A stretch of 29,978 nucleotides of DNA, from NCBI GenBank assembly GCA_043798915.1, contig JAZDOG010000040.1:1-29978 (forward strand), in the 5' to 3' direction. Numbering within the stretch: the stretch's first letter is position 1; the number at the start of each line of letters is the position of its first letter. The DNA comes from Pseudomonadota bacterium (GTDB taxonomy: Bacteria; UBA10199; 2-02-FULL-44-16; JAAZCA01). Made by a program: the position numbers and the translations under genes. Shown here in pieces: positions 116 through 23,010 of this stretch. Below the pieces are notes generated by a model. It did not search any database. It saw only the letters and a program-made list of their open reading frames with translations, and was not told the origin of the DNA.

Positions 116-159
116 AACGTCACTATATTATGCAGTCATCACTAAAGGGATTAATAAAA

Positions 160-1575
160 ATGAAATTCTCTATAGGGTATAATCATGACATTAAATTATT
201 GGATCTGCTGGATGTTTATAAAGATAATATCGAGGCCCTTTATTTTCCAATACCCCGCCAATACCTAGGTTCTGGGAGGCATATTCCTCAAAAAAATGGT
301 TATTTAAATGAAATCCCAGAGATAATTAAAAAATGCGCCTCGTTAAACATAAAATCTCAGCTGCTATTAAATGCAACATGTGAAGGAGAATCGGGACTGG
401 AGAAAAATTTCTTTTCAAAAATTATTGATTATATGCAAGGACTGAAAGATTTAGGATTAAAAAGCGCAATCGTTACGAATCCTGCCTATATCTCCGAGAT
501 AAAGGAGCAAATTAAAGAAATTGAAGTGGAATCATCTGTCAATTGTTATGTTAAAACAGTGGAACACGCTTTATATCTTAAAGACTTGGGCATAGACATC
601 CTGACTATTGATAGGGATATAAATCGAGACATATCTTTGATTAAGGAAATCAAAGATAAAACGGGGCTTAAAATAAGGCTGATGCTTAATGAAGGATGTT
701 TAAGGAATTGTCCCTTTAGAAAAATGCATTTTAATTTTATAGCACACACAAAGCCAAAATCCAAAGCTGAGATGATAGGTGGAATTTTTTTTGAGAAGTG
801 GTGCATGAAAATTTTATCCCAAAACCCCGCAAAGATTTTCAGCGTTCCGTTTATTCCGCCGGATGCTTTAAAATATTATACCCGATTTGTAGACTATTTT
901 AAAATTTCATGCCGGGATTCTCGCACTTCTCAAATTGAATTTCGTTTAAAAGCGTATATAAGTCAAAATTTCAACGGCAATCTGCTGTCATTGTTGGACT
1001 GTTCAGGCCTTGCCCCATATTTCAGATACATTGATTCAAGGGTGCTCAATGAAGGTAATTTTTTTAAAAGAATGCTTGAATGCACTGGCAACTGTGACGA
1101 ATGCAATTATTGTCGTAAATTAGTAAACAGGGCAGTTATAACTGACAGCTGTTTTTTAGATCCGACTCATCCCATTAGAATTAAAGAAAGTGAAAAGGCT
1201 GTAAAGATATACCGAAGGATTTTAAAAACTTTTCCATTTGAAGGCGCTATTTATCTGGGTTTAACCAGAGCCTACTTTAGGCTCAAGAACTATGGAGAAG
1301 CAATCAAAAAAGCAAAGAAGGTAATCGAATTGGATTATAAAGATAAAGAAGGTAATATCCATTTTCTTTTGGGTTTTTGTTATGAGAAAACCAAACAATA
1401 TAAGAAGGCAATCGGGGAACTTAAAAAAGCGCAGAGAATAAGCCCTCAAGAGCCTCAGGTAAATTTCTCTCTTTCTAATTGCCACAGAAATATTAATCAA
1501 ATAGAACAATCCAATAAAGAATTAGAGAAAGGGTTTTTAAAATTTAAGAAATCTAAACAAATGTCCAATTCTTAA
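160..1575 (+). CDS. U32-family protein (putative Fe-S hydroxylase) with C-terminal Cys cluster and TPR repeats
   Basis: Motifs SSVNC, DRDINRD, LMLNEGCLRNCPF..H and FKISCR (equivalent of U32 LKIEGR), then CTGNCDECNYC. The last ~120 aa are TPR-like (IYLGLTRAYFRLKNYGEAI; HFLLGFCYEKTKQYKKAI). The ORF track starts at 130; ATG 160 is preferred because AAAGGGA lies upstream. Confidence 0.8.
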   Translation: MKFSIGYNHDIKLLDLLDVYKDNIEALYFPIPRQYLGSGRHIPQKNGYLNEIPEIIKKCASLNIKSQLLLNATCEGESGLEKNFFSKIIDYMQGLKDLGLKSAIVTNPAYISEIKEQIKEIEVESSVNCYVKTVEHALYLKDLGIDILTIDRDINRDISLIKEIKDKTGLKIRLMLNEGCLRNCPFRKMHFNFIAHTKPKSKAEMIGGIFFEKWCMKILSQNPAKIFSVPFIPPDALKYYTRFVDYFKISCRDSRTSQIEFRLKAYISQNFNGNLLSLLDCSGLAPYFRYIDSRVLNEGNFFKRMLECTGNCDECNYCRKLVNRAVITDSCFLDPTHPIRIKESEKAVKIYRRILKTFPFEGAIYLGLTRAYFRLKNYGEAIKKAKKVIELDYKDKEGNIHFLLGFCYEKTKQYKKAIGELKKAQRISPQEPQVNFSLSNCHRNINQIEQSNKELEKGFLKFKKSKQMSNS

Positions 1576-1590
1576 AAGTAAAAATTCAAC

Positions 1591-2445
1591 ATGAAGAATT
1601 TCAAGTTAGCCTCCCGCATTGAAAAAAAGAACAGAACGATCGTTCGCGTCCAGGATGTGCAGGTGGGCGTTGGTTTTATTATTATCGCGGGCCCCTGCAG
1701 CGTGGAAAATGAAAAGCAGATGATCCAAACGGCCCAGAAAGTAAAAGAGGCTGGCGCAAATATGCTGCGGGGCGGCGCATTCAAGCCCCGCACTTCGCCG
1801 TATGATTTTCAAGGCCTTGGCATCAAGGGATTAAAAATTCTGGGAAAGGCAAAGAAGGAAACCGGTTTGCCAATCGTCACCGAGGTCATGGATGCCAGGG
1901 ACGTCTCCTGGGTGTATGAATATGCAGATGTGCTTCAAATTGGTTCACGCAATATGCAAAATTTTACATTATTGAGAGAGGTGGGAAAGCTGGATAAACC
2001 TGTTCTCCTGAAGAGGGGGATGTATTCTACGCTTGAGGAGTGGCTGGGTTCAGCAGAATATATATTATCAGAGGGAAATCCAGATGTCATATTGTGTGAG
2101 AGGGGCATTCGGACGCATGAGACCTATACGAGAAGCACCCTGGATTTGAGCATCGTTCCGTCTTTGAAAGAGGTTACCCATCTTCCTGTCATTGTTGACC
2201 CATCGCACAGCACGGGGCGACGCAGCCTTGTGGAGCCGATGAGCCTTGCAGCGGTCGCCGCAGGGGCGGATGGCCTCATCGTAGAGGTTCACCCCAATCC
2301 GGGCAAAGCCTTGAGCGACAAAGAACAACAAATAACACCCGCCATGTTCTCTTCGCTGGCTCAAAAAATAACGACCCTTCATTCCTGTATGGTAGAGATG
2401 AACGGCAACACGAAAAAAGGAAAGATCAAACATGCAGTCGATTGA
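1591..2445 (+). CDS. aroF: 3-deoxy-7-phosphoheptulonate (DAHP) synthase, type I-beta, catalytic barrel only
   Basis: IAGPCSVE, RGGAFKPRTSPYDFQG, IGSRNMQN, LKRG, CERGIRT, DPSH motifs. 284 aa with no N-terminal ACT or chorismate mutase domain. Confidence 0.95.
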   Translation: MKNFKLASRIEKKNRTIVRVQDVQVGVGFIIIAGPCSVENEKQMIQTAQKVKEAGANMLRGGAFKPRTSPYDFQGLGIKGLKILGKAKKETGLPIVTEVMDARDVSWVYEYADVLQIGSRNMQNFTLLREVGKLDKPVLLKRGMYSTLEEWLGSAEYILSEGNPDVILCERGIRTHETYTRSTLDLSIVPSLKEVTHLPVIVDPSHSTGRRSLVEPMSLAAVAAGADGLIVEVHPNPGKALSDKEQQITPAMFSSLAQKITTLHSCMVEMNGNTKKGKIKHAVD

Positions 2446-3460
2446 AATCCGCGGAACAACCGGCGGTTCAAAAATCCTTATAGGTGAGTCATTTAAAAAT
2501 CTGGGCGCCTATGTCGGTACGCGAAGATCCATCATCATTACCGATTCCAACATATTGCATTGTTACCACAAAGATTTTTCTCCCTACGAGATAATAGAGA
2601 CGGGATCGGGTGAGAGCATAAAGAACCTCCGTACGGTGGAACACATATATCATAAGCTCATTGAATGTAATGCGGATCGATCCTCCTTTATCATCGGCGT
2701 CGGCGGAGGAGTAGTCTGTGATATCACAGGATTTGTCGCATCAACTTTTTTAAGGGGGATAGATTTTGGTTTTGTGCCCACGACGCTTCTCTCACAGGTC
2801 GATGCAAGCATAGGCGGGAAAAATGGCGTAAATATTGACGGCTATAAGAATTTAGTTGGCGTTTTCAATCAACCTGAGTTTGTTCTATGTGACATCTCTT
2901 TTCTGAATACCCTTTTCGCAGACGAAGTTCTCAATGGTTTAGCAGAGATTGTGAAATGCGCCGTGGTAGGCGACGCTCGTCTATTCAATTTTTTAGAACA
3001 TAATTATCACGAGGTTCTGAATCTTGATCGAAAAATAATGGAACGCCTGGTGTTCGATGCTGTAGCCTTTAAGGCATCCATCGTAAACAATGACGAGAAG
3101 GACAACAATGAAAGGATAAAATTGAATTTCGGCCATACTTTTGGTCACGCCATCGAAAAAACGGAAGGCATCCCGCATGGCCGCGCGGTAAGCATCGGGA
3201 TGGCCATCGCCACAAAGCTTTCCGTTATGCGCAACCTGCTGGAACCATCCGCTGCGAACAGGATTGAAACGCTTCTTCTGTCGCTGGGATTACCCATAGA
3301 ATTTAATTCAGACAAAGATCAAATCAAGGATGCCATCAGAAAAGACAAGAAACACAGGGGCAATTCTATTGCAGTCGTTCTCTTAAAGGGGCTTGGCGAA
3401 GCCGTCATAGAAGAAATATCGATCACAGATATGGAGGCGGTTATCGATGATATGCGTTAG
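2432..3460 (+). CDS. aroB: 3-dehydroquinate synthase
   Basis: GGGVVCDITGF, PTTLLSQVDASIGGKN, LNFGHTFGHAIE; start overlaps the upstream gene. Confidence 0.96.
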   Translation: MQSIEIRGTTGGSKILIGESFKNLGAYVGTRRSIIITDSNILHCYHKDFSPYEIIETGSGESIKNLRTVEHIYHKLIECNADRSSFIIGVGGGVVCDITGFVASTFLRGIDFGFVPTTLLSQVDASIGGKNGVNIDGYKNLVGVFNQPEFVLCDISFLNTLFADEVLNGLAEIVKCAVVGDARLFNFLEHNYHEVLNLDRKIMERLVFDAVAFKASIVNNDEKDNNERIKLNFGHTFGHAIEKTEGIPHGRAVSIGMAIATKLSVMRNLLEPSAANRIETLLLSLGLPIEFNSDKDQIKDAIRKDKKHRGNSIAVVLLKGLGEAVIEEISITDMEAVIDDMR

Positions 3461-4085
3461 CATCTCAACAGCCGGTTTCAAATCATGCATGAAATCCCTG
3501 CGGGACGCGGAACTGGCTGAGATCAGGTTGGATAAGGTTGGTCTCTCTGATGAAGAAATCAATAAACTCTTTTCCTTGCCGTTGAAGACGATCGCCACGT
3601 GCCGTCCGAGCGCGCTTTCCTCCGTAAAAAGAATGGAGCGCCTCAAAAAAGCCATTTATGCTGGTGCTCATTACATCGACATTGAACTTGAGGCCTCCAA
3701 TAGTTACAAAGCTGAATTGTTGCGGGCAGCAAGAAATCACGGCTGCAAAGTCATCATCTCTCACCATGATAATGACAAGACACCAGGCAGAACATGTTTA
3801 AAATCTATCGTAGACCGATGCTTTGATTCAGGCGCAGACATCGCAAAAGTAGCTTGTTTTTCAAGATCCCGTGCGGACAACGCGAGAATTCTTTCGCTTT
3901 ACGATGACGATCGAAACATCATAGCTCTAGGACTTGGGAGCATAGGGCAATTTACAAGGGTGGCTGCAATTTTATTGGGCGCGCCATTTACGTATGCCTC
4001 GCCAGCTAAAGGAATGGAAACCGCAGCGGGCCAGCTGGATAAAAAAACTTTATCGAAGATTCTGGAGAATTTGAAAAGTGTCTAA
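3447..4085 (+). CDS. aroD: Type I 3-dehydroquinate dehydratase
   Basis: AEIRLD, IATCR, YIDIE, IISHHD, ADIAKVA, TR..A..LGAPFTYA and TAAGQL motifs; operon context. Confidence 0.92.
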   Translation: MICVSISTAGFKSCMKSLRDAELAEIRLDKVGLSDEEINKLFSLPLKTIATCRPSALSSVKRMERLKKAIYAGAHYIDIELEASNSYKAELLRAARNHGCKVIISHHDNDKTPGRTCLKSIVDRCFDSGADIAKVACFSRSRADNARILSLYDDDRNIIALGLGSIGQFTRVAAILLGAPFTYASPAKGMETAAGQLDKKTLSKILENLKSV

Positions 4086-5397
4086 AACGAACATTTATGC
4101 CGTAGCAGGCACGCCCGTGCTTCATAGCAAAAGCCCTGCCATATTTAATGCATTATTTAATGCTCATGCTGTTGATGCAATATATACGCGCATCGCCGCC
4201 CGTTCAGCGGATGAGGCCATTTATCTTTTCAGGGAAATTGGTCTGGCTGGAATGAACGTCACTTCGCCATTTAAAGTGGAGATCGCATCGCATCTCGACT
4301 TCATCGATCCCGAGGCTTCCTCCATAGGGGCTGTCAATACAATACTGAATAAAGACGGGGCGCTCTGTGGCTATAATACCGATCATATAGGTGTCGTTAA
4401 GTCTCTGCTGAAAAATGGTGTAAATATAGCCGGCGCCAAGTGTATCGTTCTCGGCGCCGGAGGAGCTGGAAGAGCCGCGGCCTACGGCCTCTTAAAATAT
4501 GGCGCAGATGTCATAATGATCAACAGAACGTTCGATAAAGCCAAAAGAGCAGCATCTGCTTTAGGTTGTCGGGCTGAAAAATATGAAACATTGAAGAAGT
4601 TTATAGAACAGGCGGATGTGCTTGTCTCTGCTGTCCCCACCGGCACCTGCTCCATAAACGCGGCTTCCCTTAAGAAAGAGCTCGTCGTGCTCGATGCAAA
4701 TTATCTGCCTCCGTCCTTTTCTGAAGGGACGTCGGGCAGTAAAATCTTCCGCATCGGTGGTGAGGAATGGCTCGTTCAACAGGCCATTCCGTCATATAAA
4801 TATTTCACTGGTCTCGATCCCGATGAACATCTTATGAGCGAAGCAGCATCACTGCCGACTCGTCCAAAAGGAAGCAATATATCCTTAATCGGTTTTATGT
4901 GTTCCGGCAAAAGCAGCGTCGGAACGTGTCTTTCACAAATATTGCGTTTGGAGCATATCGACACAGACGATTACATCCAGCAGGCCTCAGGCAAAGCAAT
5001 TCGAAACATCATCGATTCAGAGGGTGAGAACAGTTTCAGGCTCCTAGAGAAAAAGGCGATTCTGCAGCTGAACAAGCGCTGCAGCACGGTCTTGTCGTGC
5101 GGAGGCGGCGCTGTTATCGATAGTCGCAACAGATCAGTTCTCAGGGATAACTCTTTGGTAGTATGGCTTTATTCTTCACCTGAATCGATTGTGACAAGGC
5201 TTGATGGGGGATCGAGACCTCTCTTGGACGGCATCAATCCCATCCACAAGGCAAAATCAATGCTGAAAGACAGACTTGCATTTTACGCCGATGCTGCAGA
5301 TATTATCGTGGCAAGCGATGGAATGAGCCCAAAAGAGATTGCCGATAGAATACATGAGGAAATCAGTTCTGCCTTCAAAAATATCTGGAATTATTAA
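4078..5397 (+). CDS. aroE: Shikimate dehydrogenase - shikimate kinase fusion (AroE-AroK)
   Basis: N-terminal HSKSP, NVTSPFK, GAVNT, GYNTD, LGAGGAGRA, INRT. C-terminal P-loop GFMCSGKSSVG, DTD, SCGGG, RPLL. GTG start. Confidence 0.93.
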   Translation: MSKTNIYAVAGTPVLHSKSPAIFNALFNAHAVDAIYTRIAARSADEAIYLFREIGLAGMNVTSPFKVEIASHLDFIDPEASSIGAVNTILNKDGALCGYNTDHIGVVKSLLKNGVNIAGAKCIVLGAGGAGRAAAYGLLKYGADVIMINRTFDKAKRAASALGCRAEKYETLKKFIEQADVLVSAVPTGTCSINAASLKKELVVLDANYLPPSFSEGTSGSKIFRIGGEEWLVQQAIPSYKYFTGLDPDEHLMSEAASLPTRPKGSNISLIGFMCSGKSSVGTCLSQILRLEHIDTDDYIQQASGKAIRNIIDSEGENSFRLLEKKAILQLNKRCSTVLSCGGGAVIDSRNRSVLRDNSLVVWLYSSPESIVTRLDGGSRPLLDGINPIHKAKSMLKDRLAFYADAADIIVASDGMSPKEIADRIHEEISSAFKNIWNY

Positions 5398-6604
5398 GGC
5401 GCCGGCGTCCAAGAGCATGACGCAGCGTGCGATCGCTGCCGCATTTCTATCCAAAGAAGGGACCGCAATATTAAATCCTTCGTTCTGCACTGACGCGATT
5501 TCCGCGATGCACATGGCTGAAGGCCTTGGAGCTGTAATTGAGAAAACCCCGGAAAGGATTATTGTAAGGCGCGGGTCAGAATCCCATTTAAGCAGACTGG
5601 ATTGTGGCGAATCTGGTTTTTGCGTCAGGATGTTCTCACCGATCGCAGCTCTTTTTGACAAAGAGATCACACTCTCCGGAGCAAAATCGCTTGCGGGAAG
5701 GCCTCATAAAATGATCGAAGCCCCGCTTCGGGAACTTGGCGCCGAGTGTTCCACTCGTGATGGTCATCTGCCGATTCAAATAAAGGGTCCGATTCGAGGT
5801 GGAGTGGCTCACGTAGACGGCTCAATTACTTCACAATTTCTTTCGGGGCTGCTCATCGCGCTTCCGGTAATAGCTGACGACACTGAAATTATCGTATCGA
5901 ATCTCAAAAGCAAGCCATACATCGACATGACTTTGTCTGTGCTGGACAAATTTGGCATCGCCGTCGAGCACTCAGGCTACGAGCGTTTTTTCATAAAAGG
6001 CCGCCAGAGCTATTGTGCTGAAGAATACGCAGTCGAAGGCGACTGGAGCGGTTCGGCCTTCATGATGGTCGCTGGGGCAATAGGTGGAAGCGTTGAAATT
6101 ACCGGGCTAGACATCACTTCCAGTCAAGGCGACGTAGCTGTATTGGATATCTTAAATGCCTGTGGTGCTGGCATCAACATCGGCACTGGGAGCATAACAG
6201 TATCAAAAGCAAATCTTCACTCCTTTAGATTTGATGCGGCTGAGCATCCTGACCTTGTTTTGCCCCTCGCAATTTTAGCCTGCAATTGCGGTGGAATCAG
6301 TTATATTACAGGCTTGGAGCGATTGCAGCACAAAGAGAGCGACAGGGCTTTATGCTTATATCGCGGGCTTTCGAAATTGGGCGCCGATATAATCCTCAGA
6401 AACGATTGCATGGAAATTAACGGCAGCAAATTGACAGGCGGTTATTTTGACCCTTGCGGCGATCATAGACTTGTGATGGCCGCGGCTGTGGCCGCGATTG
6501 CTTCGAAGGAAAGAGTGGTTATCGATCAGTGCGAATGCGTATCAAAGTCTTATCCAGATTTCTTTGAGGATATCATCGGCATAGGAGTAAATATCCATGA
6601 ATAG
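5354..6604 (+). CDS. aroA: 3-phosphoshikimate 1-carboxyvinyltransferase (EPSP synthase)
   Basis: PASKSMTQR, CGESG, TSQFLSGLL, EGDWS, HKESDR, DHRLVMA, KSYPDFF. ATG 5354 preferred over TTG 5339. Confidence 0.96.
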   Translation: MRKSVLPSKISGIIKAPASKSMTQRAIAAAFLSKEGTAILNPSFCTDAISAMHMAEGLGAVIEKTPERIIVRRGSESHLSRLDCGESGFCVRMFSPIAALFDKEITLSGAKSLAGRPHKMIEAPLRELGAECSTRDGHLPIQIKGPIRGGVAHVDGSITSQFLSGLLIALPVIADDTEIIVSNLKSKPYIDMTLSVLDKFGIAVEHSGYERFFIKGRQSYCAEEYAVEGDWSGSAFMMVAGAIGGSVEITGLDITSSQGDVAVLDILNACGAGINIGTGSITVSKANLHSFRFDAAEHPDLVLPLAILACNCGGISYITGLERLQHKESDRALCLYRGLSKLGADIILRNDCMEINGSKLTGGYFDPCGDHRLVMAAAVAAIASKERVVIDQCECVSKSYPDFFEDIIGIGVNIHE

Positions 6605-7589
6605 CTTTGGAAGGCTTTTCAGAATCAGCGTCTATGGCGAATCTCATGGACAATCCGTGGGTGTCGTAATCGACGGATGTCCTGCCGGAATCCCGCTCTC
6701 GGAAAAAGATTTTGAAAAAGATCTCATGGAACGGCGATCCGGAGCAAGAGGCACCTCCACGCGCAGGGAGCCTGATAAACCGATTATTATGAGCGGCCTC
6801 TTCCGTGGGAGGACGACAGGCGCTCCGCTCACAGTGCATTTTAGAAATACTGATGTCGATTCGAAAACTTATAAATCCGTAAGGGACATTCCAAGGCCCG
6901 GACATGCTGATTATGTGGCTGTGAAAAAATATGGCGGATTCAATGACCACAGAGGCGGGGGTCATTTTTCCGGAAGAATGACCTTGGGGCTCGTGGCATC
7001 AGGCGTGGTTGCAAAGAAGCTGATCCTTCCGATGAAAGTGCGCGCACATCTGGTTGAAGCAGGGGGAGACGCCAATATAGCGCAAGCTGTTGAATGCGCT
7101 CTTAGTAGTGAGGATTCAATAGGCGGAATCATCGAGTGCATTGTCATTGATGTGCTTCCGAAACTCGGCGAACCTTTTTTTGATTCCGTCGAATCGCTTG
7201 TAAGCCATGCGATGTTTTCGGTTCCCGGAGTGAAGGGAATCGAGTTCGGGGCCGGTTTTGCATCGGCTCGAATGCGCGGAAGCGAGTATAATGACCCCAT
7301 TATCAGCGCTCGCGGAAAAACGAAAACCAACAATTGCGGCGGTATAAATGGGGGTATTACAAATGGAAACGACCTTTTGCTCAGGGTTGCTGTAAGACCC
7401 CCATCGAGCATAGGGGCTATCCAGCATACATATGACTTCGTGAAGAAGAAGCGGGTTCGAGTATCAATACCGGGAAGGCATGATGCATGCATCGCACTGA
7501 GGATGCCGGTGATTGTTGAGTCCGTAGTCTCTGTCGTGCTCGCGGATTTGTGCCTCCTTGACCAACAGCTGTCACGCGTGACGAGGTAA
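6597..7589 (+). CDS. aroC: Chorismate synthase
   Basis: GESHG, RPGHAD, GGGHFSGR, NNCGGINGGITNG, GRHDAC. Confidence 0.96.
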   Translation: MNSFGRLFRISVYGESHGQSVGVVIDGCPAGIPLSEKDFEKDLMERRSGARGTSTRREPDKPIIMSGLFRGRTTGAPLTVHFRNTDVDSKTYKSVRDIPRPGHADYVAVKKYGGFNDHRGGGHFSGRMTLGLVASGVVAKKLILPMKVRAHLVEAGGDANIAQAVECALSSEDSIGGIIECIVIDVLPKLGEPFFDSVESLVSHAMFSVPGVKGIEFGAGFASARMRGSEYNDPIISARGKTKTNNCGGINGGITNGNDLLLRVAVRPPSSIGAIQHTYDFVKKKRVRVSIPGRHDACIALRMPVIVESVVSVVLADLCLLDQQLSRVTR

Positions 7590-7592
7590 CCC

Positions 7593-8657
7593 ATGAACCT
7601 GGCCGAAATCAGAAAGGAAATCGACCACGTCGATTTAAGGATTCTGAAGCTGCTCAATGAAAGAATGGAACGCGTGCTGATCGCGAATAAATTCAAGGCC
7701 GCCATCGACGACCCCAATAGAGAGAAAAACATCCTGGATGGAGTGAGAAGGCATTCAGGAATGATCCTTGAGCCTCGTTCATGTGAAATATTATTTAAGG
7801 AAATAATGAAAATAAGCAAAAGGCTTCAAGCAAAAGATCATCGCTTAATTGCCTTTCGAGGCGAACATGGGAACTATAATGAGCTGGCAGCGACACAGTG
7901 GAAAGACAATCTTATTCCAATTCCGTGCCGGGAATACGAGGATGTGTTTGAAGGCATCAGCTCAATGTATTACGATTATGGAATTGTGCCGATGGAGAAC
8001 ACGCTCGATGGGTATGTTGGCCCTTCCGTCGATCTTCTGATGGGCACAAATCTCTTTGCGGCTGACTCCGTTCAAATGCCAATACATCACTGTCTTCTTG
8101 CTATCCCCGGAACTGACCATCGTGAAATCAGAATTGTTTATTCACACCCTCACATACTTTCGCAGTGCAGGCGTTTTTTGAGCAGGAACAAGCTTGTTCC
8201 AAAACCTTATCATGACTCTGGAGCTGCGGCAAAATGGCTTGCGGAGGAGGCCCCCGGAGATTCCGCCGTCATTTCGAGCAAATTTGCGGCAAATCTCTAC
8301 AACCTGGAAATCCTCAAGGAGAACATTGAAGATATCAAAGCGAATAAGACGAGGTTCCTGGTGTTCAGTCGAAATAAAAATCAAAAACCCAATTCCAAAA
8401 ACAGCATCATCATATCGACAGATGACAAGACCACAACGCTTTTGAGGATATTGGAATGCTTCGTCAAAGAGGGCGTCAATCTCACAAGTGTTGAGTCAAT
8501 ACCGAGGCAATTGGGCAAGCATACGTTCATGCTCGATTTCATCGATTCGGGGAAAGACGGGAAGGTTTCAAAAGTGATAAATCGTGTTAAAAAGATGACG
8601 ATCGATTTTAAATATTTAGGCAGCTATAATGAAGTCGAGGTCGTTGAATCGAATTAG
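7593..8657 (+). CDS. pheA: Chorismate mutase (AroQ) - prephenate dehydratase - ACT (P-protein); dehydratase and ACT motifs atypical
   Basis: AroQ domain (LAEIRKEIDHVD..NER..K..DPNRE..S..Q); PDT domain with ENT, SHP and TRF motifs; C-terminal ACT-like region with NLTSVESIP. Confidence 0.9.
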   Translation: MNLAEIRKEIDHVDLRILKLLNERMERVLIANKFKAAIDDPNREKNILDGVRRHSGMILEPRSCEILFKEIMKISKRLQAKDHRLIAFRGEHGNYNELAATQWKDNLIPIPCREYEDVFEGISSMYYDYGIVPMENTLDGYVGPSVDLLMGTNLFAADSVQMPIHHCLLAIPGTDHREIRIVYSHPHILSQCRRFLSRNKLVPKPYHDSGAAAKWLAEEAPGDSAVISSKFAANLYNLEILKENIEDIKANKTRFLVFSRNKNQKPNSKNSIIISTDDKTTTLLRILECFVKEGVNLTSVESIPRQLGKHTFMLDFIDSGKDGKVSKVINRVKKMTIDFKYLGSYNEVEVVESN

Positions 8658-8681
8658 CACTAATTGGGGCCAGGGGGCAGG

Positions 8682-10070
8682 ATGAAAAAAGCGATCAAGG
8701 CAGGCCTCATATTCGTCATCCTGTGTCTGTTGTCTCCCATTCCAGCCAGAGGCCAGGGCAGGACGATCTACCGCATAACCCTCGAAGACGACATCATAAA
8801 CCCGGTCACCTCCGAGTACATCACCACATCCATCGAGAGGGCCGAGCGCGACGGCGCCCTCTGCCTCATCATCGAGCTCGACACGCCAGGCGGGCTTCTG
8901 ACCTCCACGCGCACGATCGTGAAGGGCATCATGAACGCGCGCGTCCCCGTCGTCGTCTACGTGGCGCCGAAGGGCGCGAGGGCCGGCTCCGCGGGCGTAT
9001 TCATCACGCTCGCCGCAAATATCGCGGCGATGGCGCCGGGGACAAACATAGGCGCGGCGCACCCGGTGGAAATCGAGGAGCGCCGTTCGACCGGGGATTC
9101 GCTCGAAGATATTCTGGGCAGGATATTCCAGAAGGACGCCAAGGAGAAGAAGAAGGCCGCGAAGGCAGCCGCCGCTCAGCCGATGGAACAGAAGATCCTC
9201 AACGACACAAAGGCATGGGCCGAGGCGATCGCCCGCGAGCGCGGGAGAAATGCGGCATGGGCCTCGTCGGCCGTCACCGAGAGCGTCTCCGTCGCTGATG
9301 CCGAGGCATTGAAACTCGGGATCATCGACATCGTCGCGGCCGACACGGCCGACCTCGTCGCAAAACTCGACGGGCGGAAGGTGAAGATGGCGGAAGGCAC
9401 CGCCACGATCGAGACCCGCAATGCCACCATCGTCGACATCCCGAAGAATTTCCGCCTCCGCTGGCTCTCGGCCCTCGCGCATCCGAACATCGCCTATATC
9501 CTGATGATGCTTGGGTTCTACGGCCTGCTCTTCGAATTCACCCACCCGGGCATCGCGTTCCCCGGCATCGCCGGGGCGGTCTCGCTCATCCTCGCGTTCT
9601 TCGGCCTCCAGGTGCTGCCCACGAACTACGCCGGCGTGGCGCTCATCGTGCTCGCGATCGCGATGTTCATCGCGGAGATAAAGGTCGCGAGCTACGGCCT
9701 GCTCACCGTCGGAGGAGTCATCACCCTCTTCCTTGGCTCGCTCATCCTCTTCTCGTCGCCCTACGACTTCATGCGCGTCTCGATTCCGATCGCGCTGGCC
9801 TTCACTCTCGCGACGCTTGCGGTCGCGTCTTTTCTGGTCTTCATCGTCGTCCGGTCCAGAAAGCGGCGCGTCGTCACCGGCCTCGAGGGTATCGTGGGAG
9901 AACGCGGCGGGGTCAAGAGCTGGAAGGACGGCAATGGCAAGGTCTTTGTCCACGGCGAGCTGTGGGACGCCACATCAAACGAGACACTTGCAGTCGGTAC
10001 CAATATCGAAGTAGTTTCGGTTCAAGGGATGACAGTTGTTGTAAAACCAAGTACTCAGAATTTCAACTGA
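8682..10070 (+). CDS. nfeD: NfeD-family membrane-bound serine protease (long form: ClpP-like domain, TM region, OB fold)
   Basis: Signal peptide, [26 protein letters not shown], hydrophobic TM block, [12 protein letters not shown]; paired with an SPFH gene. ATG 8682 preferred. Confidence 0.93.
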
Positions 10071-10080
10071 AGGAGGTCCT

Positions 10081-10836
10081 ATGCCGTCACCGATGATGAT
10101 TTTTGTGGGTTTCATCGTTCTCTATCTCCTCTCGTGCGTGAAGATCCTCAAGGAATACGAGCGCGGCGTCATCTTCCGGCTGGGGAGGCTCCTCTCGAAA
10201 CCCAAGGGGCCCGGGATTATCTTCGTCTTCAAGCCAGTGGACAAGATGGTCCGCATCTCGCTGCGCCTGGTCGCGTTCGACGTCCCGCCTCAGGACATCA
10301 TCACGAAGGACAACGTCTCGGTGAAGGTGAGCGCAGTCATATACTTCAGGGTGATGGACGCCAACAAGGCAGTGACGGACGTCGAGGACTTCGGCTTCGC
10401 GACGAGCCAGATGGCGCAGACGACACTGAGGAGTGTCATCGGGCAGAGGGAGTTGGACGACCTCCTCTCCGAGCGCGACAAGATCAACGCACAGATACAG
10501 GAGATCCTCGACAAGCAGACCGAGCCGTGGGGGATCAAGGTGTCGAACGTCGAGGTGAAGAACGTCGATATCACCGAAGAGCTCAAACGCGCGATGGCGA
10601 GACAGGCAGAGGCCGAGCGCGAGAGGAGGGCAAAGGTGATCAACGCCGAGGGCGAATTTCAGGCCGCGGCAAAGCTCGTCGAGGCGGCAAAACTTATCGA
10701 AGTCCACCCGGTGGCACTGACGATGCGCTATCTGCAGACGCTCGTCGAGATCTCGAGCGAGAACAACACGACCACGCTCTTTCCCATCCCGATCGATTTC
10801 ATCAAACCGTTTATGGAGAAGCTGCAGCAGAAGTAG
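10081..10836 (+). CDS. SPFH/stomatin-like (slipin) protein
   Basis: [63 protein letters not shown]. Confidence 0.95.
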
Positions 10837-19200: not shown

Positions 19201-19332
19201 AACGATCTGCAAAAGCCCTCGTTGCCGGGCAGCCTCTAGCAAATCGCCAGATTACAGGCAAGCGCTAAAATCCTGATTTCCTCCCGCTCCTTTGCCTTGA
19301 CCACCCCAAGAAAATCCTGTTGTCTCCCATCC

Positions 19333-21456
19333 ATGGGGGTCCTGCGAAAAAATCACCGGTTGAGCCATGCCCTGTGGGCGCTCGCCATAGGGGTCGGCTG
19401 CGCGGCCATCGCCATTGCCATATCCCAGACACGCCTCGCCAGGAGCTGGGAGCTGCACACATACGACGCACGGATGTGGCTCGCGCAAAAGAGCCGCCCG
19501 AAGCCCCGGGACGTCGTGATGTTCTACGTCGACGAGCCGTCGCTCAGGCGGATGGAGGGCCAGGGGATAAACTGGCCGTGGCCGCGCGAACTCTATGCCT
19601 CAGCGATGAATTTCTGCAGGCTGGGCGGCGCACGCGCGGTCCTTTTCGACCTCTTCTTTTCCGAGGATTCGGTCTACGGAGTCGGCGATGATGAGGCATT
19701 CGCCTCCGGCGTGGCGAAGGGCCCGCCATCCTACTTCGTCGCATTCCTGACAAAGAACGAGACGGCCGATGATCCGCGCATTCCGGCGGTGATCCGGAAG
19801 GGCGCGGTCCCGCTTGCCCAGCCATATCCGGAGTGGATGCGCTCCTCTCGATCGCTCGCCTCCCTCCCGATCGAGCCCCTCGTCGAGGCCGCCACGGGTT
19901 TCGGAAACGCGCAGATGCCGCCGGATGAAGACGGCGTCTACAGGCGCATCCCGCTCATCGAGGGAATCGGAAGCGAGGCGATGCCCTCAATCCCCCTCAA
20001 GGTCGCCTCCGACATCAAACAGGTCCGGGCCCTTTCGTGGCCGAAAAAATTCAGCTTCATGTTCGGCGGTCAGGCGATCCCGCTGGATGGCGGCGGGCAC
20101 ATGATGCTCAATTATTACGGAGGAGCCGACACCTTCCCCGCCCATTCCCTGGCCGATATCCTGGTGGCCGACGCGGCGGTCGCCGCAGGGAAAAAACCGG
20201 ACATCGACCCTGCGATAGTGAAGGACAAGGTGGTGATAATAGGCGTCGCGGCGCCGGGCCTCTATGACTTGAAGCCCATGCCGCTCTCGCGCGTCTACCC
20301 CGGGCCCGAGATACACGCCACGGCGATCGAAAATATCCTCACATCCGACTTCATAACGCCCGCGCACCGGACCACCACGGCGCTGATCGCGCTCTTTGCG
20401 AGCCTCGCAGCGGCCCTAGGGCTCGCATGGATGAAGCGAATGTGGGGGATCGTCCTGTTGCTCTCGCTCCTTGCGCTCTCCCTCATCGGTGGCGCGTGTT
20501 TGCTCTTCTGGCGATCGGTCTGGGTCCCGATCGTTTCGCCCGCGGGCGCGCTGGCCCTCTCCGCGTTCGCTATGTCGGTCAGGAACTTCATGACCGAGGG
20601 GAGAAAAAAGCGGGAGATCAGGCGCGCCTTCGGCCAGTACCTTTCGCCTCACATCGTCGGACAGATCGCCGAACACCCGGAGTCCCTCTCGCTGGGGGGC
20701 GCCGAACAGGAGATAACCATCTTTTTCTCCGACATCGCCGACTTCACCTCGATATCGGAAAAGATCACCCCGGCCGAGATCGTCGAAAAACTCAACGGCT
20801 ACTTCTCTGGAACCACGAGGATAATACAGGCATCCGGCGGCACGCTCGACAAATACATAGGCGACGCCATCATGGCATTCTGGGGGGCGCCGCTGCCGAT
20901 GGCGGACCACGCCGTACGCGCCGCCACTGCGGCGATCGACATCCAGAAGTGGCTCGCCGAAAACTCGAAGTTCACAACGCGAATCGGGATCCACACCGGA
21001 CCGGCCGTGGTCGGCAATATCGGTTCGGACATAAGATTCAACTACACCGCGATAGGCGACGCCGTGAACCTCTCCTCCCGCCTCGAGGGCCTGAACAAGA
21101 AGTTCGGGACGCGGATCATCCTGAGCGAGCCGGCCTGGCTGCAGGCCTCGGCTTCGATCAGGGCGAGGAGGATCGGCCGCGTGCGCGTCAAGGGGCGAGC
21201 GGAACCGATCGGGATATATGAGCCGCTGGGGCTTGCCGGCGAGGCAAACCCAATCGACGATTCGACCATCGAGGAGTTTGCCCGGGCCTTAGGCCTCTTC
21301 GAAACGTCAAAATTTGGCGAGGCCGGGGAGATATTCGGAATGCTCGCAGCAGAGAAGGCCGATGCCGTATCGCGAAGCTACAAGCGGCTCTGCGCCGAAT
21401 ATACACGGAAGGCGCCCGACGGGTTCGACGGCGCCATCACATTCACGACAAAGTGA
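19333..21456 (+). CDS. CHASE2-domain class III adenylate cyclase (membrane-bound)
   Basis: N-terminal TM; CHASE2 motifs WPWPR..YA, FDLFF, D.DGVYRR, PGPEIHAT..ENIL; three TMs; catalytic FSDIADFT, DKYIGDAIMAFW, YTAIGDAVNLSSRLE (Lys/Thr indicate ATP specificity). ATG 19333 preferred over TTG 19297. Confidence 0.93.
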   Translation: MGVLRKNHRLSHALWALAIGVGCAAIAIAISQTRLARSWELHTYDARMWLAQKSRPKPRDVVMFYVDEPSLRRMEGQGINWPWPRELYASAMNFCRLGGARAVLFDLFFSEDSVYGVGDDEAFASGVAKGPPSYFVAFLTKNETADDPRIPAVIRKGAVPLAQPYPEWMRSSRSLASLPIEPLVEAATGFGNAQMPPDEDGVYRRIPLIEGIGSEAMPSIPLKVASDIKQVRALSWPKKFSFMFGGQAIPLDGGGHMMLNYYGGADTFPAHSLADILVADAAVAAGKKPDIDPAIVKDKVVIIGVAAPGLYDLKPMPLSRVYPGPEIHATAIENILTSDFITPAHRTTTALIALFASLAAALGLAWMKRMWGIVLLLSLLALSLIGGACLLFWRSVWVPIVSPAGALALSAFAMSVRNFMTEGRKKREIRRAFGQYLSPHIVGQIAEHPESLSLGGAEQEITIFFSDIADFTSISEKITPAEIVEKLNGYFSGTTRIIQASGGTLDKYIGDAIMAFWGAPLPMADHAVRAATAAIDIQKWLAENSKFTTRIGIHTGPAVVGNIGSDIRFNYTAIGDAVNLSSRLEGLNKKFGTRIILSEPAWLQASASIRARRIGRVRVKGRAEPIGIYEPLGLAGEANPIDDSTIEEFARALGLFETSKFGEAGEIFGMLAAEKADAVSRSYKRLCAEYTRKAPDGFDGAITFTTK

Positions 21457-21528
21457 TCTCCAGTTGCCTTGGGTTCAATTCGCGAGTATAAAATGCGATC
21501 AATAGAATCAGCACCGAAAGGAGATTAT

Positions 21529-22032
21529 ATGAAGAAAGGGACGTTTTTAGCAATAGCTCTCATCGCCGCAGCCGTCGCTGCGACGCCCGCCTTCGGCAGG
21601 GGCAAGGGTGGCGGAGGCGGAGGTAAAAGCGGGACGATGAGCGTGCAGGTGCGCGAGGCGATCGTCCGCACCACGCCCAATTACATGGGCGGAACCGCCG
21701 GCACATTGTCCTACGGCGCGCAGGTGAACGTCGAAGGCGAGGAAGGAAACTGGTATCGGATCGCATCTCCGGCCGGCTTTCTCCCCAAGAGCGCCCTCAC
21801 ATCCCACAAGGTTGCAGTGAATCCGGATTCGAAGGGTTCCGGCAGGGGCGCATCGCACGATGAGGTCGCGCTCGCCGGCAAGGGTTTCAACCCGCAGGTC
21901 GAGGCCCAGTACAAGAAGAGCAATGCCGAGGTCGCGGCCGCATACGCAATCGTCGATCGCGTCGAGCAGTTCGGCGCGGGCGAAGCGGCGGTCAAGGCCT
22001 TCCAGGCTGCGGGAAAACTGAAAGCGCGATGA
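21529..22032 (+). CDS. Secreted SH3-like domain protein
   Basis: Signal peptide, Gly linker, SH3b-like VR.TP....LSYGAQVNV...GNWYRI..GFLPKSAL, then EVALAGKGFNPQVE. AAGGAG RBS before ATG 21529. Confidence 0.75.
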   Translation: MKKGTFLAIALIAAAVAATPAFGRGKGGGGGGKSGTMSVQVREAIVRTTPNYMGGTAGTLSYGAQVNVEGEEGNWYRIASPAGFLPKSALTSHKVAVNPDSKGSGRGASHDEVALAGKGFNPQVEAQYKKSNAEVAAAYAIVDRVEQFGAGEAAVKAFQAAGKLKAR

Positions 22033-22039
22033 GAATCCT

Positions 22040-22120
22040 CCCCCTTCTTTGTAAGGAGGGGCCAGGGGAGGTAGACCATGATCTACCCCACCCTGACCCT
22101 CCCCGTACACAGGGGAGGGG
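22040..22120. repeat. REP-like palindromic doublet, same family as 23-115
   Basis: ccccttctttgtaaggaggggccaggggaggtagac...tctaccccaccctgaccctccccgtacacaggggagggg. Confidence 0.85.
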
Positions 22121-22143
22121 AATATCAACTCAGGAGACAAAAC

Positions 22144-23010
22144 ATGAAACGCCATCTCACCTGCATAATGATAGCGGCCCTCCTTTCCATCCCGGCCTCC
22201 GCTCCCGCATTCGACCTTGGCCAGGTGGTGCAGTCGGCGGTCGGCGGAATCCAGCAGGTCGCCGAGGCTTCGAAGGATATCACGCCCTCTGAAGAGCACT
22301 ACATCGGCCGCGCAGTCGCGGCGGAGGTCCTGTCGAAATATCCGCTGTTCGATAATCCGGCTCTCACGAAGTATATAAACGAAGTCGGATTGCTGCTGGC
22401 TTATTCATCCGAGAGGCCATCGACGTACGGTGGATATCACTTTGCGGTGCTCGCGAGCCAAGAGCCGAATGCCTTCGCGTGCCCTGGCGGAATAATCTTC
22501 ATAAACCAGGGGCTCTTGAAGCTGCTGAAAAATGAGGATCAGCTGGCCGCGATCCTTGGCCATGAGATCATGCACGTGGTGCAGAGGCATTCGATCGGCG
22601 AACTCAAGAAGGCGCAATGGACGAAGCTGGGATTCTATGCGGCCGCTGAAGTGGGCAAACAGTATTCGGCCAGCGAGGTGGGCCAGATCGTGAACCAGTT
22701 CCAGGGCGTCGTCTCCGACGTCGCAAAGAGGGTGCTCGAATCCGGCTACAGCAAGGGGGATGAGAAGAAGGCCGACGAGAGCGGCATGCGCCTTGCCTAT
22801 AAGGTCGGCTACAACCCGTCGGAGGGCGTCGATTTCTTCAAGATGCTTGAGGAAAAAGACATTGGCACTTCATCCGGCCCCTTTGCCGATCATCCCAAGA
22901 TCCAGGCAAGGATCAAAAACCTCGAGGGCGAGCTTGGCGGTTTGAATGACGCAGCGGCAACCGATCCGGTTCGCACGGCCAGGTTCAACGCCGTGATGGG
23001 AAGGAGATGA
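22144..23010 (+). CDS. M48-family zinc metallopeptidase (exported)
   Basis: Signal peptide, PNAFACPGG, EDQLAAILGHEIMHV (HEXXH), E..AD..G, GYNP, HP. CAGGAG RBS before ATG 22144. Confidence 0.92.
   Translation: MKRHLTCIMIAALLSIPASAPAFDLGQVVQSAVGGIQQVAEASKDITPSEEHYIGRAVAAEVLSKYPLFDNPALTKYINEVGLLLAYSSERPSTYGGYHFAVLASQEPNAFACPGGIIFINQGLLKLLKNEDQLAAILGHEIMHVVQRHSIGELKKAQWTKLGFYAAAEVGKQYSASEVGQIVNQFQGVVSDVAKRVLESGYSKGDEKKADESGMRLAYKVGYNPSEGVDFFKMLEEKDIGTSSGPFADHPKIQARIKNLEGELGGLNDAAATDPVRTARFNAVMGRR

Follow-up and report, generated by a model that had tools for sequence, protein, structure and literature searches.

UbiU and UbiV of Escherichia coli (YhbU and YhbV) constitute an O2-independent, prephenate-dependent ubiquinone hydroxylase, and the work on this dependence reports that the oxygen of prephenate enters ubiquinone, with a like role proposed for U32 proteins in general (PMC10990095). 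Two other U32 proteins, RlhA (YdcP) and TrhP (YegQ), serve the formation of ho5C2501 in 23S rRNA and of ho5U34 in tRNA, respectively, and both are described as prephenate-dependent in the corresponding reports (PMC5727448, PMC6599085). The role of prephenate as an organic oxygen donor was discovered only recently; it rests so far on UbiU/V, with genetic links to RlhA and TrhP, and no substrate is known for most U32 subfamilies. Here we examine a 29,978-nucleotide (nt) stretch of DNA, called the window, which is the whole of contig C42 of the host metagenome-assembled genome (MAG) G000 (105 contigs, 2.34 Mb, 57.7% GC, 97% completeness, and 3.3% contamination). Near its left end, a gene for a U32-like protein with C-terminal TPR repeats, hereafter U32-TPR, lies directly ahead of a complete shikimate (aro) operon. 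An initial annotation of this DNA, which does not mention the TPR repeats, proposed that the two form a portable hydroxylase with its own supply of prephenate.

We favor, with somewhat better than even confidence, a different reading, wherein two pieces of DNA, each imported separately, form a mosaic ahead of host genes and were joined in what looks like a one-off splice. The first piece (positions 142 to ~1596) would be a recent Omnitrophota-type import encoding a U32-like iron-sulfur (Fe-S) TIM-barrel enzyme with a TPR docking domain. The second (1591 to 8657), a complete shikimate operon with chorismate mutase/prephenate dehydratase (CM/PDT), would have come from an unsampled donor into a family otherwise lacking the pathway. 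Our literature searches turned up no publication that deals with the U32-TPR subfamily or with U32 proteins in clusters for ribosomally synthesized and post-translationally modified peptides (RiPPs), and nothing that links peptidase U32 with a shikimate gene cluster and a hydroxylase.

Results

The U32-like gene and the aro genes differ in their relatives

All genes from U32-TPR (160 to 1575, 471 codons) through the CM/PDT gene are on the plus strand, and 15 nt separate the U32-TPR stop codon from the ATG of aroF. A search of a large protein collection returned relatives of the U32-TPR protein with identities of 89, 86, 83% and lower, among which the close relatives with a named source are overwhelmingly from Candidatus Omnitrophota. 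The family comprises 926 representatives at 50% identity (E up to 1e-10). At the DNA level, the gene is 90.0% identical over 1444 nt to metagenome contigs L024 and L025, and 86.1% identical to a third contig, L026. The likeness to these three loci is confined to positions ~142/153 to 1596, starting 18 nt before the U32-TPR ATG and stopping in the alignments at the aroF start codon. Thus, the insert amounts to one gene with minimal flanks. On its left is a donor-derived 5′ leader with a purine-rich ribosome-binding stretch (142 to 159, plus strand), where likeness to L026 sets in at ~142, and on its right is the 15-nt spacer (1576 to 1590, plus strand), which can be aligned to the 3′ flank of the donor genes up to a BLAST end at ~1596. 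Among 5.8 billion proteins, the best match outside of G000 for the fused AroE/K protein of the operon is 48% identical. This disparity, 89% protein and 90% DNA identity for U32-TPR versus at most 48% for AroE/K, indicates that the two pieces differ in history.

Both pieces are foreign to the host, in agreement with the initial annotation. Host relatives were represented by 12 genomes of the host family and by phylum samples of 41 genomes (for aroC and PF01136) or 93 genomes including G000 (for the U32 domain). The U32 barrel domain occurs in none of the 92 other phylum genomes (E up to 1e-10), and matches among 40 host relatives were found by the TPR part alone. A scan of contigs with the U32-TPR protein yielded five distant loci at 26 to 30% identity, none of them useful. 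Among the 12 family genomes, chorismate synthase (aroC) and CM/PDT (pheA) were found in none and 3-dehydroquinate synthase in one; the host family appears to lack the shikimate pathway, and other families of the phylum have aroC. The AroC protein of the window is 40 to 46% identical to the AroC proteins of five more distant phylum genomes. These identities, the 48% maximum for AroE/K, and a GC content at third codon positions (GC3) far from that of the host argue that the operon is foreign and its donor unsampled. Its sequence relationships point to acquisition from a lineage that is absent from the databases.

The block is also lower in GC than the host genes, as first noted in the initial annotation. 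GC content is 0.34 for U32-TPR and 0.44 to 0.51 for the aro genes (GC3 0.47 to 0.55) versus 0.58 to 0.64 for the later host genes, and the host genes band7, pyk, and secA have GC3 values of 0.84 to 0.91. The GC step between U32-TPR and the aro genes was considered as proof of two donors and was rejected because the U32-TPR gene shows the same offset in donor loci, where it lies ~11 points under its surroundings (0.30 versus 0.41).

Composition bears equally on the proposal that positions 142 to 8657 arrived in one transfer, from a donor wherein U32-TPR and the aro operon were already neighbors. Both parts fall below the host GC, share a strand, and are 15 nt apart, and the GC offset of U32-TPR from its surroundings is similar in the donor loci. 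However, organisms with 86 to 90% identical U32-TPR genes are represented by contigs as long as 56 kb, yet no AroE/K protein above 48% identity was found, and the likeness to all three close loci ends at the aroF ATG. We therefore regard a single transfer as very unlikely.

Relatives of U32-TPR recurrently lie beside radical-SAM peptide cassettes

If the pairing of U32-TPR with aro genes were a conserved module, as the initial annotation held, then aro genes should recur near other members of the family. We examined the best 80 of 147 confirmed metagenome loci that encode relatives of the U32-TPR protein, 30 of which are shorter than 4.5 kb and 50 longer. A search with the seven window aro proteins detected an aro gene near a U32 relative at 1 of these 80 loci (1 of the 50 longer ones), and this count was unchanged when TGA was read as sense (code 4) or when E values up to 0.01 were admitted. 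The single case (L041, 3 to 362, minus strand) is the start of a 3-deoxy-D-arabino-heptulosonate 7-phosphate (DAHP) synthase-like gene whose product is 47% identical to the window AroF. It is divergently oriented ~1 kb upstream of a TPR-less U32-like gene, and the contig ends there. The initial annotation had itself named a lack of such enrichment, which is what these counts show, as evidence against a conserved module, and its broader proposal of a portable hydroxylase with an attached prephenate supply also fits poorly with the differing histories of the two pieces, the sole aro set in the host, and the RiPP-type neighbors described below.

The three closest loci (L024 to L026) have other neighbors, including a tRNA-deaminase-like gene, methyltransferases, a band-7 gene, and a radical-SAM (S-adenosylmethionine) set. 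Downstream of U32-TPR they carry a PEMT-like methyltransferase gene, a band-7 gene, and a gene for a small protein, unlike the window. The band-7 protein of L025 (38.7% identical to that of the window) might have been a remnant of earlier synteny, a possibility that was rejected because the nfeD and band-7 genes of the window are ordinary family orthologues.

A Pfam scan was made of 84 of the 195 candidate neighbor open reading frames (ORFs), drawn from 34 loci and excluding ORFs under ~100 residues and all loci found to be TGA-recoded. Radical-SAM genes were present in 12 of these loci, PqqD in two, and YcaO in two, and methyltransferases and ATP-binding cassette (ABC) exporters recur beside the U32 relatives. 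With L026 added, a radical-SAM, PqqD, or YcaO neighbor is seen in 17 of 37 loci. The family is therefore recurrently found beside radical-SAM/PqqD/precursor peptide cassettes and not beside aro genes.

The host genome contains a cassette of this kind at the start of contig C99 (C99:1-10200, locus L131, minus strand). Its order is a PqqD-domain protein, a 67-residue precursor rich in Cys, Trp, and Tyr, two radical-SAM genes, a 300-residue protein, a third radical-SAM gene, and an ABC exporter, and an AbiEi/AbiEii pair follows. The 300-residue protein belongs to no Pfam family and is found in none of the 12 family genomes and in six other phylum genomes at 26 to 36% identity. Its counterpart in L026, an Omnitrophota-type locus bearing U32-TPR, is 44% identical, above the identities within its phylum. 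Of the 80 U32 loci, 28 contain homologues of C99 cassette proteins and 13 contain homologues of the cassette-specific ones (the PqqD-domain, precursor, 300-residue, and 151-residue proteins); in L026 and L034 the latter are 40 to 65% identical to those of C99. The U32-TPR gene of L034 is situated between the first two radical-SAM genes, and the precursors beside U32-TPR genes in L026, L034, and L037 carry the near-invariant leader of the G000 precursor. In the donors, U32-TPR proteins would thus act as accessory enzymes of radical-SAM peptide (RiPP) cassettes. In G000, U32-TPR most likely serves the homologous C99 cassette, where it would modify the cassette peptide, possibly through O2-free hydroxylation of an aromatic residue. 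Structure prediction for U32-TPR together with the precursor peptide of C99, computed without controls, gave no answer (score 0.00) and counts neither for nor against this role.

The gene could instead be a functionless hitch-hiker that neither serves the C99 cassette nor uses prephenate. It is a single-gene insert of ~1.45 kb, and the C99 cassette, with its host-like GC of 0.52 to 0.58 and its 45 to 65% identity to the cassettes that accompany U32-TPR genes, did not travel with it. Nevertheless, the reading frame has stayed intact over 471 codons at 10% DNA divergence from the closest relatives, and every invariant cysteine and other invariant residue is retained in the window copy. An idle passenger is, in our estimation, improbable.

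The window begins within a repeat that joins it to C99 or C73

The C99 cassette is probably located just upstream of U32-TPR, across a repeat at which the window contig breaks. Contig C42 ends 159 nt upstream of the U32-TPR gene, and positions 1 to 141 are a copy of a dispersed palindromic host repeat with two hairpin modules, which has 91 BLAST matches in 42 G000 contigs (75 of them 80 nt or longer) and is absent from the 80 U32 loci and from 15 loci of host relatives. A second copy is present in the window at 22041 to 22119. The repeat also stands at the starts of C77, C99, and C73 and at the end of C88. An identical 141-nt prefix is common to C42 and C77 and another to C99 and C73, and the reverse complement of one prefix overlaps the other by 135 nt, yielding an exact 147-nt repeat and a tangle of two incoming and two outgoing paths. 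Such contig starts are expected from a de Bruijn assembler (k = 141) at an exact 147-nt repeat that is present twice. As a consequence of this tangle, C42 is preceded by either C99 or C73, which are the only contigs that can abut its left end.

The onset of likeness to L026 at ~142 coincides exactly with the point at which C42 and C77 diverge. If C99 is joined, then the cassette, the AbiE pair, the repeat, and U32-TPR are all oriented in one direction, and the U32-TPR gene begins ~0.8 kb past AbiEii. Nothing resembling the cassette is seen at the end of C73. On these grounds we consider it likely that C99 adjoins C42. The same boundary agrees with the start of the U32-like gene in the initial annotation, as relatives begin at the Met encoded at position 160 and the alternative ATG at 130 is inside the host repeat.

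U32-TPR is a divergent protein with a U32-type fold

The initial annotation described the first gene as a member of an uncharacterized, divergent U32 subfamily, and the profile matches of window proteins to Pfam and NCBIfam, on which all gene identities given here are based, agree. The match to PF01136 (Peptidase_U32) is weak (29.0 bits versus a gathering cut-off of 22.4, profile positions 3 to 86 of 233) and is the sole match to this family in G000. The U32-like TIM-barrel domain with its conserved cysteines corresponds to positions 160 to 1164 (plus strand), and the TPR repeat domain, together with the stop codon, to 1165 to 1575 (plus strand); TPR_2 and related families match residues ~352 to 476 when numbered from the ATG at 130. 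A full-length alignment was unsuitable as a profile query against the PDB because TPR proteins dominate its matches, and the barrel alone (the N-terminal 335 residues) was used instead, retrieving 5D88 at an E value of 5.7e-16. An AlphaFold2 model of the protein (predicted local distance difference test score, pLDDT, of 92 and predicted template modeling score, pTM, of 0.91) gave 5d88 as the top Foldseek match (E 2e-11, template modeling score 0.70 by target length), with generic TIM barrels making up the remainder. The model, the Foldseek search, and the profile search agree on a TIM-barrel fold of the U32 type.

In most U32 families, a four-cysteine motif with the spacing CX6CX15CX3/4C binds a [4Fe-4S] cluster, as stated in PMC6747719. 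The conserved cysteines of U32-TPR comprise a CX3C that follows a barrel strand, a further Cys 30 residues later, and a C-terminal CX3CX2CX2C, a pattern that matches neither the canonical spacing nor the UbiU or UbiV variants. In an hhalign comparison, the first conserved cysteine corresponds in position to C169 of UbiU, and an Fe-S cluster at this site is plausible. NCBIfam searches at E up to 0.001 returned TPR families only, with no match of the UbiU, UbiV, RlhA, or TrhP type. Considering the cysteine pattern, the C169-like position, and the lack of an NCBIfam match, U32-TPR is a divergent U32-fold protein outside every characterized U32 family, and one that probably binds an Fe-S cluster.

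The wider subfamily extends to TPR-less relatives at ~45 to 57% identity in Margulisbacteria and in archaea whose source names are Woesearchaeota, Nanohaloarchaeota, and Bathyarchaeia. Ten loci with TPR-less relatives (L061 to L064, L066, L068, L069, L072, L076, and L089) have a GC content of 19 to 32%, and long ORFs cover 0 to 14% of their length in the standard code and 85 to 99% with TGA as sense. Because these loci become coding only when TGA is read as sense, the subfamily is also present in TGA-recoded lineages (at least ten loci). Lineages of this kind and DPANN archaea usually lack amino-acid synthesis and seldom produce aromatic amino acids, and their possession of the subfamily weighs against a general dependence on prephenate.

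The aro operon is the only aromatic pathway found in the host genome

The gene order of the initial annotation, with the U32-like gene followed by aroF-aroB-aroD-aroE/K-aroA-aroC-CM/PDT, was borne out by the profile matches. All seven genes are on the plus strand and either overlap or are 3 nt apart. The first, aroF (1591 to 2445), encodes a type I-beta DAHP synthase of the B. subtilis type (TIGR01361, 407 bits) that matches PRK08673 from model position 67 of 338 and is without the N-terminal regulatory domain. It is followed by aroB (3-dehydroquinate synthase, 2432 to 3460; TIGR01357, 327 bits), aroD (type I dehydroquinase, 3447 to 4085; PF01487, 130.6 bits), and an aroE-aroK fusion (4078 to 5397) encoding shikimate dehydrogenase (Shikimate_dh_N/Shikimate_DH, residues 9 to 199) and shikimate kinase (SKI, residues 274 to 429). 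The gene for 5-enolpyruvylshikimate-3-phosphate synthase, aroA (5339 to 6604; TIGR01356, 339 bits), may truly start slightly downstream of the TTG at 5339. Next are aroC (chorismate synthase, 6597 to 7589; PF01264, 354 bits) and the pheA-type CM/PDT gene (7593 to 8657; CM_2, residues 6 to 79, and PDT, residues 86 to 262). The latter protein ends in an ACT-like tail (residues 265 to 336) that weakly matches the N-terminal part of TIGR01268 (phenylalanine 4-monooxygenase), a part of that model which is an ACT regulatory domain. The operon therefore covers every step from DAHP synthase through chorismate synthase as well as chorismate mutase and prephenate dehydratase, with strong Pfam scores throughout; the scores of AroD and AroE fall short of the NCBIfam equivalog cut-offs but exceed those of Pfam.

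A second, housekeeping aro set, the presence of which the initial annotation had left for later checking, was not found in this 97%-complete genome. In tblastn searches with all seven aro proteins, every G000 match is on C42, and PF01264 occurs once in the genome. The block contains no tyrA, trp, or aminotransferase gene, as initially annotated, and searches of G000 detected no prephenate dehydrogenase/TyrA (PDH_N), no TrpA, and no MqnA. A divergent TrpE/PabB-like gene (C23:9916-11085; L111 7917-9086, minus strand; Chorismate_bind 44 bits, Anth_synt_I_N 40 bits) stands isolated in the genome, with no trp, pab, or men neighbors, and is a possible second consumer of chorismate. The operon is thus the only aromatic pathway found in the cell and, as far as can be seen, feeds phenylalanine only. 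Its main job would be to make phenylpyruvate and hence phenylalanine. The gene content of the operon is ordinary, and what is new is the fusion of this imported operon to U32-TPR in a family where searches did not otherwise detect the pathway.

The aro genes may be transcribed by read-through from U32-TPR

Neither a terminator-like site nor an obvious Shine-Dalgarno sequence is present in the spacer between U32-TPR and aroF. A scan for promoters and terminators was uninformative, with 13 promoter-like and 10 terminator-like sites versus 14.7 and 9.4 in shuffled sequences. The splice would have removed the upstream region of aroF. Because this region is lost and no terminator-like site intervenes, read-through into aroF is probable, and transcription of the aro genes probably passes through, or starts within, U32-TPR.

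Such an arrangement could have been selected, with the aro operon recruited or kept behind U32-TPR mainly as a source of prephenate, the oxygen donor in an O2-independent hydroxylation whose substrate would probably be the peptide of a RiPP cassette, in a lineage otherwise unable to make prephenate. The precedent of UbiU and UbiV, whose use of prephenate has been proposed to hold for U32 proteins in general, favors this proposal, as do the 15-nt junction with its missing terminator and aroF leader, the failure to find aroC in any of the 12 family genomes or TyrA and TrpA in G000, and the presence of aroC in all four PF01136-bearing genomes among the 41 of the phylum sample. In addition, a PheA-type chorismate mutase is a sufficient source of prephenate for UbiU/V in E. 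coli, according to PMC10990095. Other observations disagree with selection for this purpose. An aro gene is near relatives at only 1 of 80 loci, the closest relatives (86 to 90% DNA identity) have other neighbors, and the two pieces are at different distances from their nearest database entries. Moreover, the terminal dehydratase of the operon uses up prephenate, the subfamily occurs in at least ten loci with TGA as sense (19 to 32% GC) and in source-named DPANN archaea, and the canonical U32 cysteine spacing is not kept.

We consider a selected fusion unlikely. The more specific proposal, wherein one member of a family that has lost the shikimate pathway imported both pieces and these now form a fused transcription unit in which prephenate from the chorismate mutase is the oxygen donor for O2-free hydroxylation of a ribosomal peptide, we likewise consider unlikely. 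Whatever the origin of the linkage, U32-TPR would depend on this operon if it resembles UbiU/V, since the operon is the only prephenate source.

The imported block is flanked by host DNA

At the right junction, a 25-nt spacer (8658 to 8682, plus strand) marked by a GC step separates the pheA stop codon from the ATG of nfeD. The nfeD and band-7 genes (8683 to 10836, plus strand) are host genes outside the island, and nfeD has orthologues in 11 of the 12 family genomes at 48 to 70% identity. The GC3 of nfeD (8683 to 10070) is only 0.59 versus 0.84 to 0.91 for neighboring host genes, although its protein is a normal family orthologue. In four relatives (L124 to L127), a divergent gene pair is upstream of nfeD/band-7, and the G000 orthologues of this pair are at C99:71009-72281. 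Genes of window positions 19300 to 23000 lie between C99-type genes. These displacements indicate that G000 has been rearranged around the island.

The juxtaposition of low-GC and host DNA could also be an artefact of assembly or binning, wherein the assembler joined the low-GC left end to host DNA. The MAG is composed of 105 contigs with an estimated contamination of 3.3%, the contig begins in a repeat, and three GC levels are found on one contig. However, the foreign stretch is flanked on one side by the host repeat (91 matches on 42 contigs) and on the other by nfeD with its family orthologues at 48 to 70% identity, and all three junctions fall in 15- to 25-nt spacers that leave every reading frame intact, which is rare for random chimeric joins. 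Many other low-GC islands also exist within long host contigs. We therefore regard an artefact as very unlikely. About 50 stretches of at least 1 kb with a GC content below 45% lie inside long host-GC contigs of G000, which suggests frequent uptake of low-GC DNA. Examples are C99:51001-53500 (minimum 0.33) and C103:24501-26500 (0.35).

Discussion

The mosaic of two imports accounts for the abrupt end of donor likeness at aroF, the unequal database distances of the two pieces, and the peptide-cassette neighbors of the U32-TPR family. As part of this reading, and with the same somewhat better than even confidence, positions 142 to ~1596 would have been taken recently from an Omnitrophota-type donor. 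The adjacency of the two pieces would be an unsurprising coincidence, given that it is a single event in one genome and that very many windows were scanned.

Several observations weigh against this reading. A selected transcriptional fusion would look like the junction that we see, with its 15 nt, its lack of a terminator-like site, and its lost aroF leader. G000 is the sole family genome with an aro operon and the sole one of 93 phylum genomes with the U32 domain, and the two are adjacent. PF01136 is present in 4 of 41 phylum genomes, all four of which have aroC, versus 17 of the 37 others, a weak comparison in view of the non-independence of related genomes. It is also odd for a seven-step pathway to be kept solely for phenylalanine, when neither a Tyr nor a Trp branch was found. 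The GC offset of U32-TPR is equal in donor loci, such that the GC step alone is no proof of two donors. Finally, the join of C99 to C42 is unproven, and the assembly graph alone allows C73 as much as C99.

The pairing of U32-TPR with aro genes is best viewed as one suggestive instance that lends itself well to experiment, not as a conserved system. It offers a natural test case, in which a U32 enzyme from a peptide-cassette family resides in a cell whose only possible source of prephenate is the operon fused to it. If U32-TPR depends on prephenate, then peptides would join quinones and RNA as substrates of prephenate chemistry; if it does not, then the subfamily would show that U32 barrels do something else. 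Should the prephenate-peptide reading hold, this locus would provide the first connection, from genomic evidence, between a RiPP-tailoring U32 enzyme and prephenate chemistry. In addition, the case records how one aromatic branch was regained in a lineage for which the pathway was not detected elsewhere.

Among known systems, ordinary aro/pheA operons, with a B. subtilis-type DAHP synthase and an E. coli-type P-protein, likewise gather the seven common-pathway activities and CM/PDT in one tight operon. Unlike these, the operon of the window is the sole aromatic branch found in its host, was imported, and has lost its own 5′ region to U32-TPR. The Omnitrophota radical-SAM cassettes with U32-type genes have the U32-TPR family, the precursor leader, and the radical-SAM/PqqD/ABC set in common with G000. 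Unlike in those cassettes, the U32-TPR gene of G000 is outside its cassette, at best after the AbiE pair and the repeat; its GC content is far below that of the cassette, and an aro operon is fused to it.

The closest match to U32-TPR by both profile and fold is the U32 domain of MK0906 from Methanopyrus kandleri (PDB 5D88; 17% identity), a barrel of unknown function that says nothing on chemistry. Canonical U32 genes in three phylum genomes match PF01136 at 286 to 300 bits over positions 3 to 232 versus 29 bits over positions 3 to 86 for U32-TPR. RlhA and TrhP share a Pfam family with U32-TPR, and no RNA-related context was seen at the U32-TPR locus. UbiU and UbiV have the U32-type TIM-barrel core in common with U32-TPR. 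With UbiU, hhalign pairs domain residues 23 to 171 of U32-TPR with residues 20 to 159 (probability 41%), and a U32-TPR cysteine follows the same strand as C169; UbiV gives no significant alignment (0.7%). The cysteine patterns are CX6CX16CX38C in UbiU and CXnCX12CX3C in UbiV, as given in PMC6747719, versus CX3C-X30-C and CX3CX2CX2C in U32-TPR. A TPR domain is present only on the window protein, and no gene for UbiT or a heterodimer partner lies beside it. The neighbors of its relatives are peptide-cassette genes, not ubi genes.

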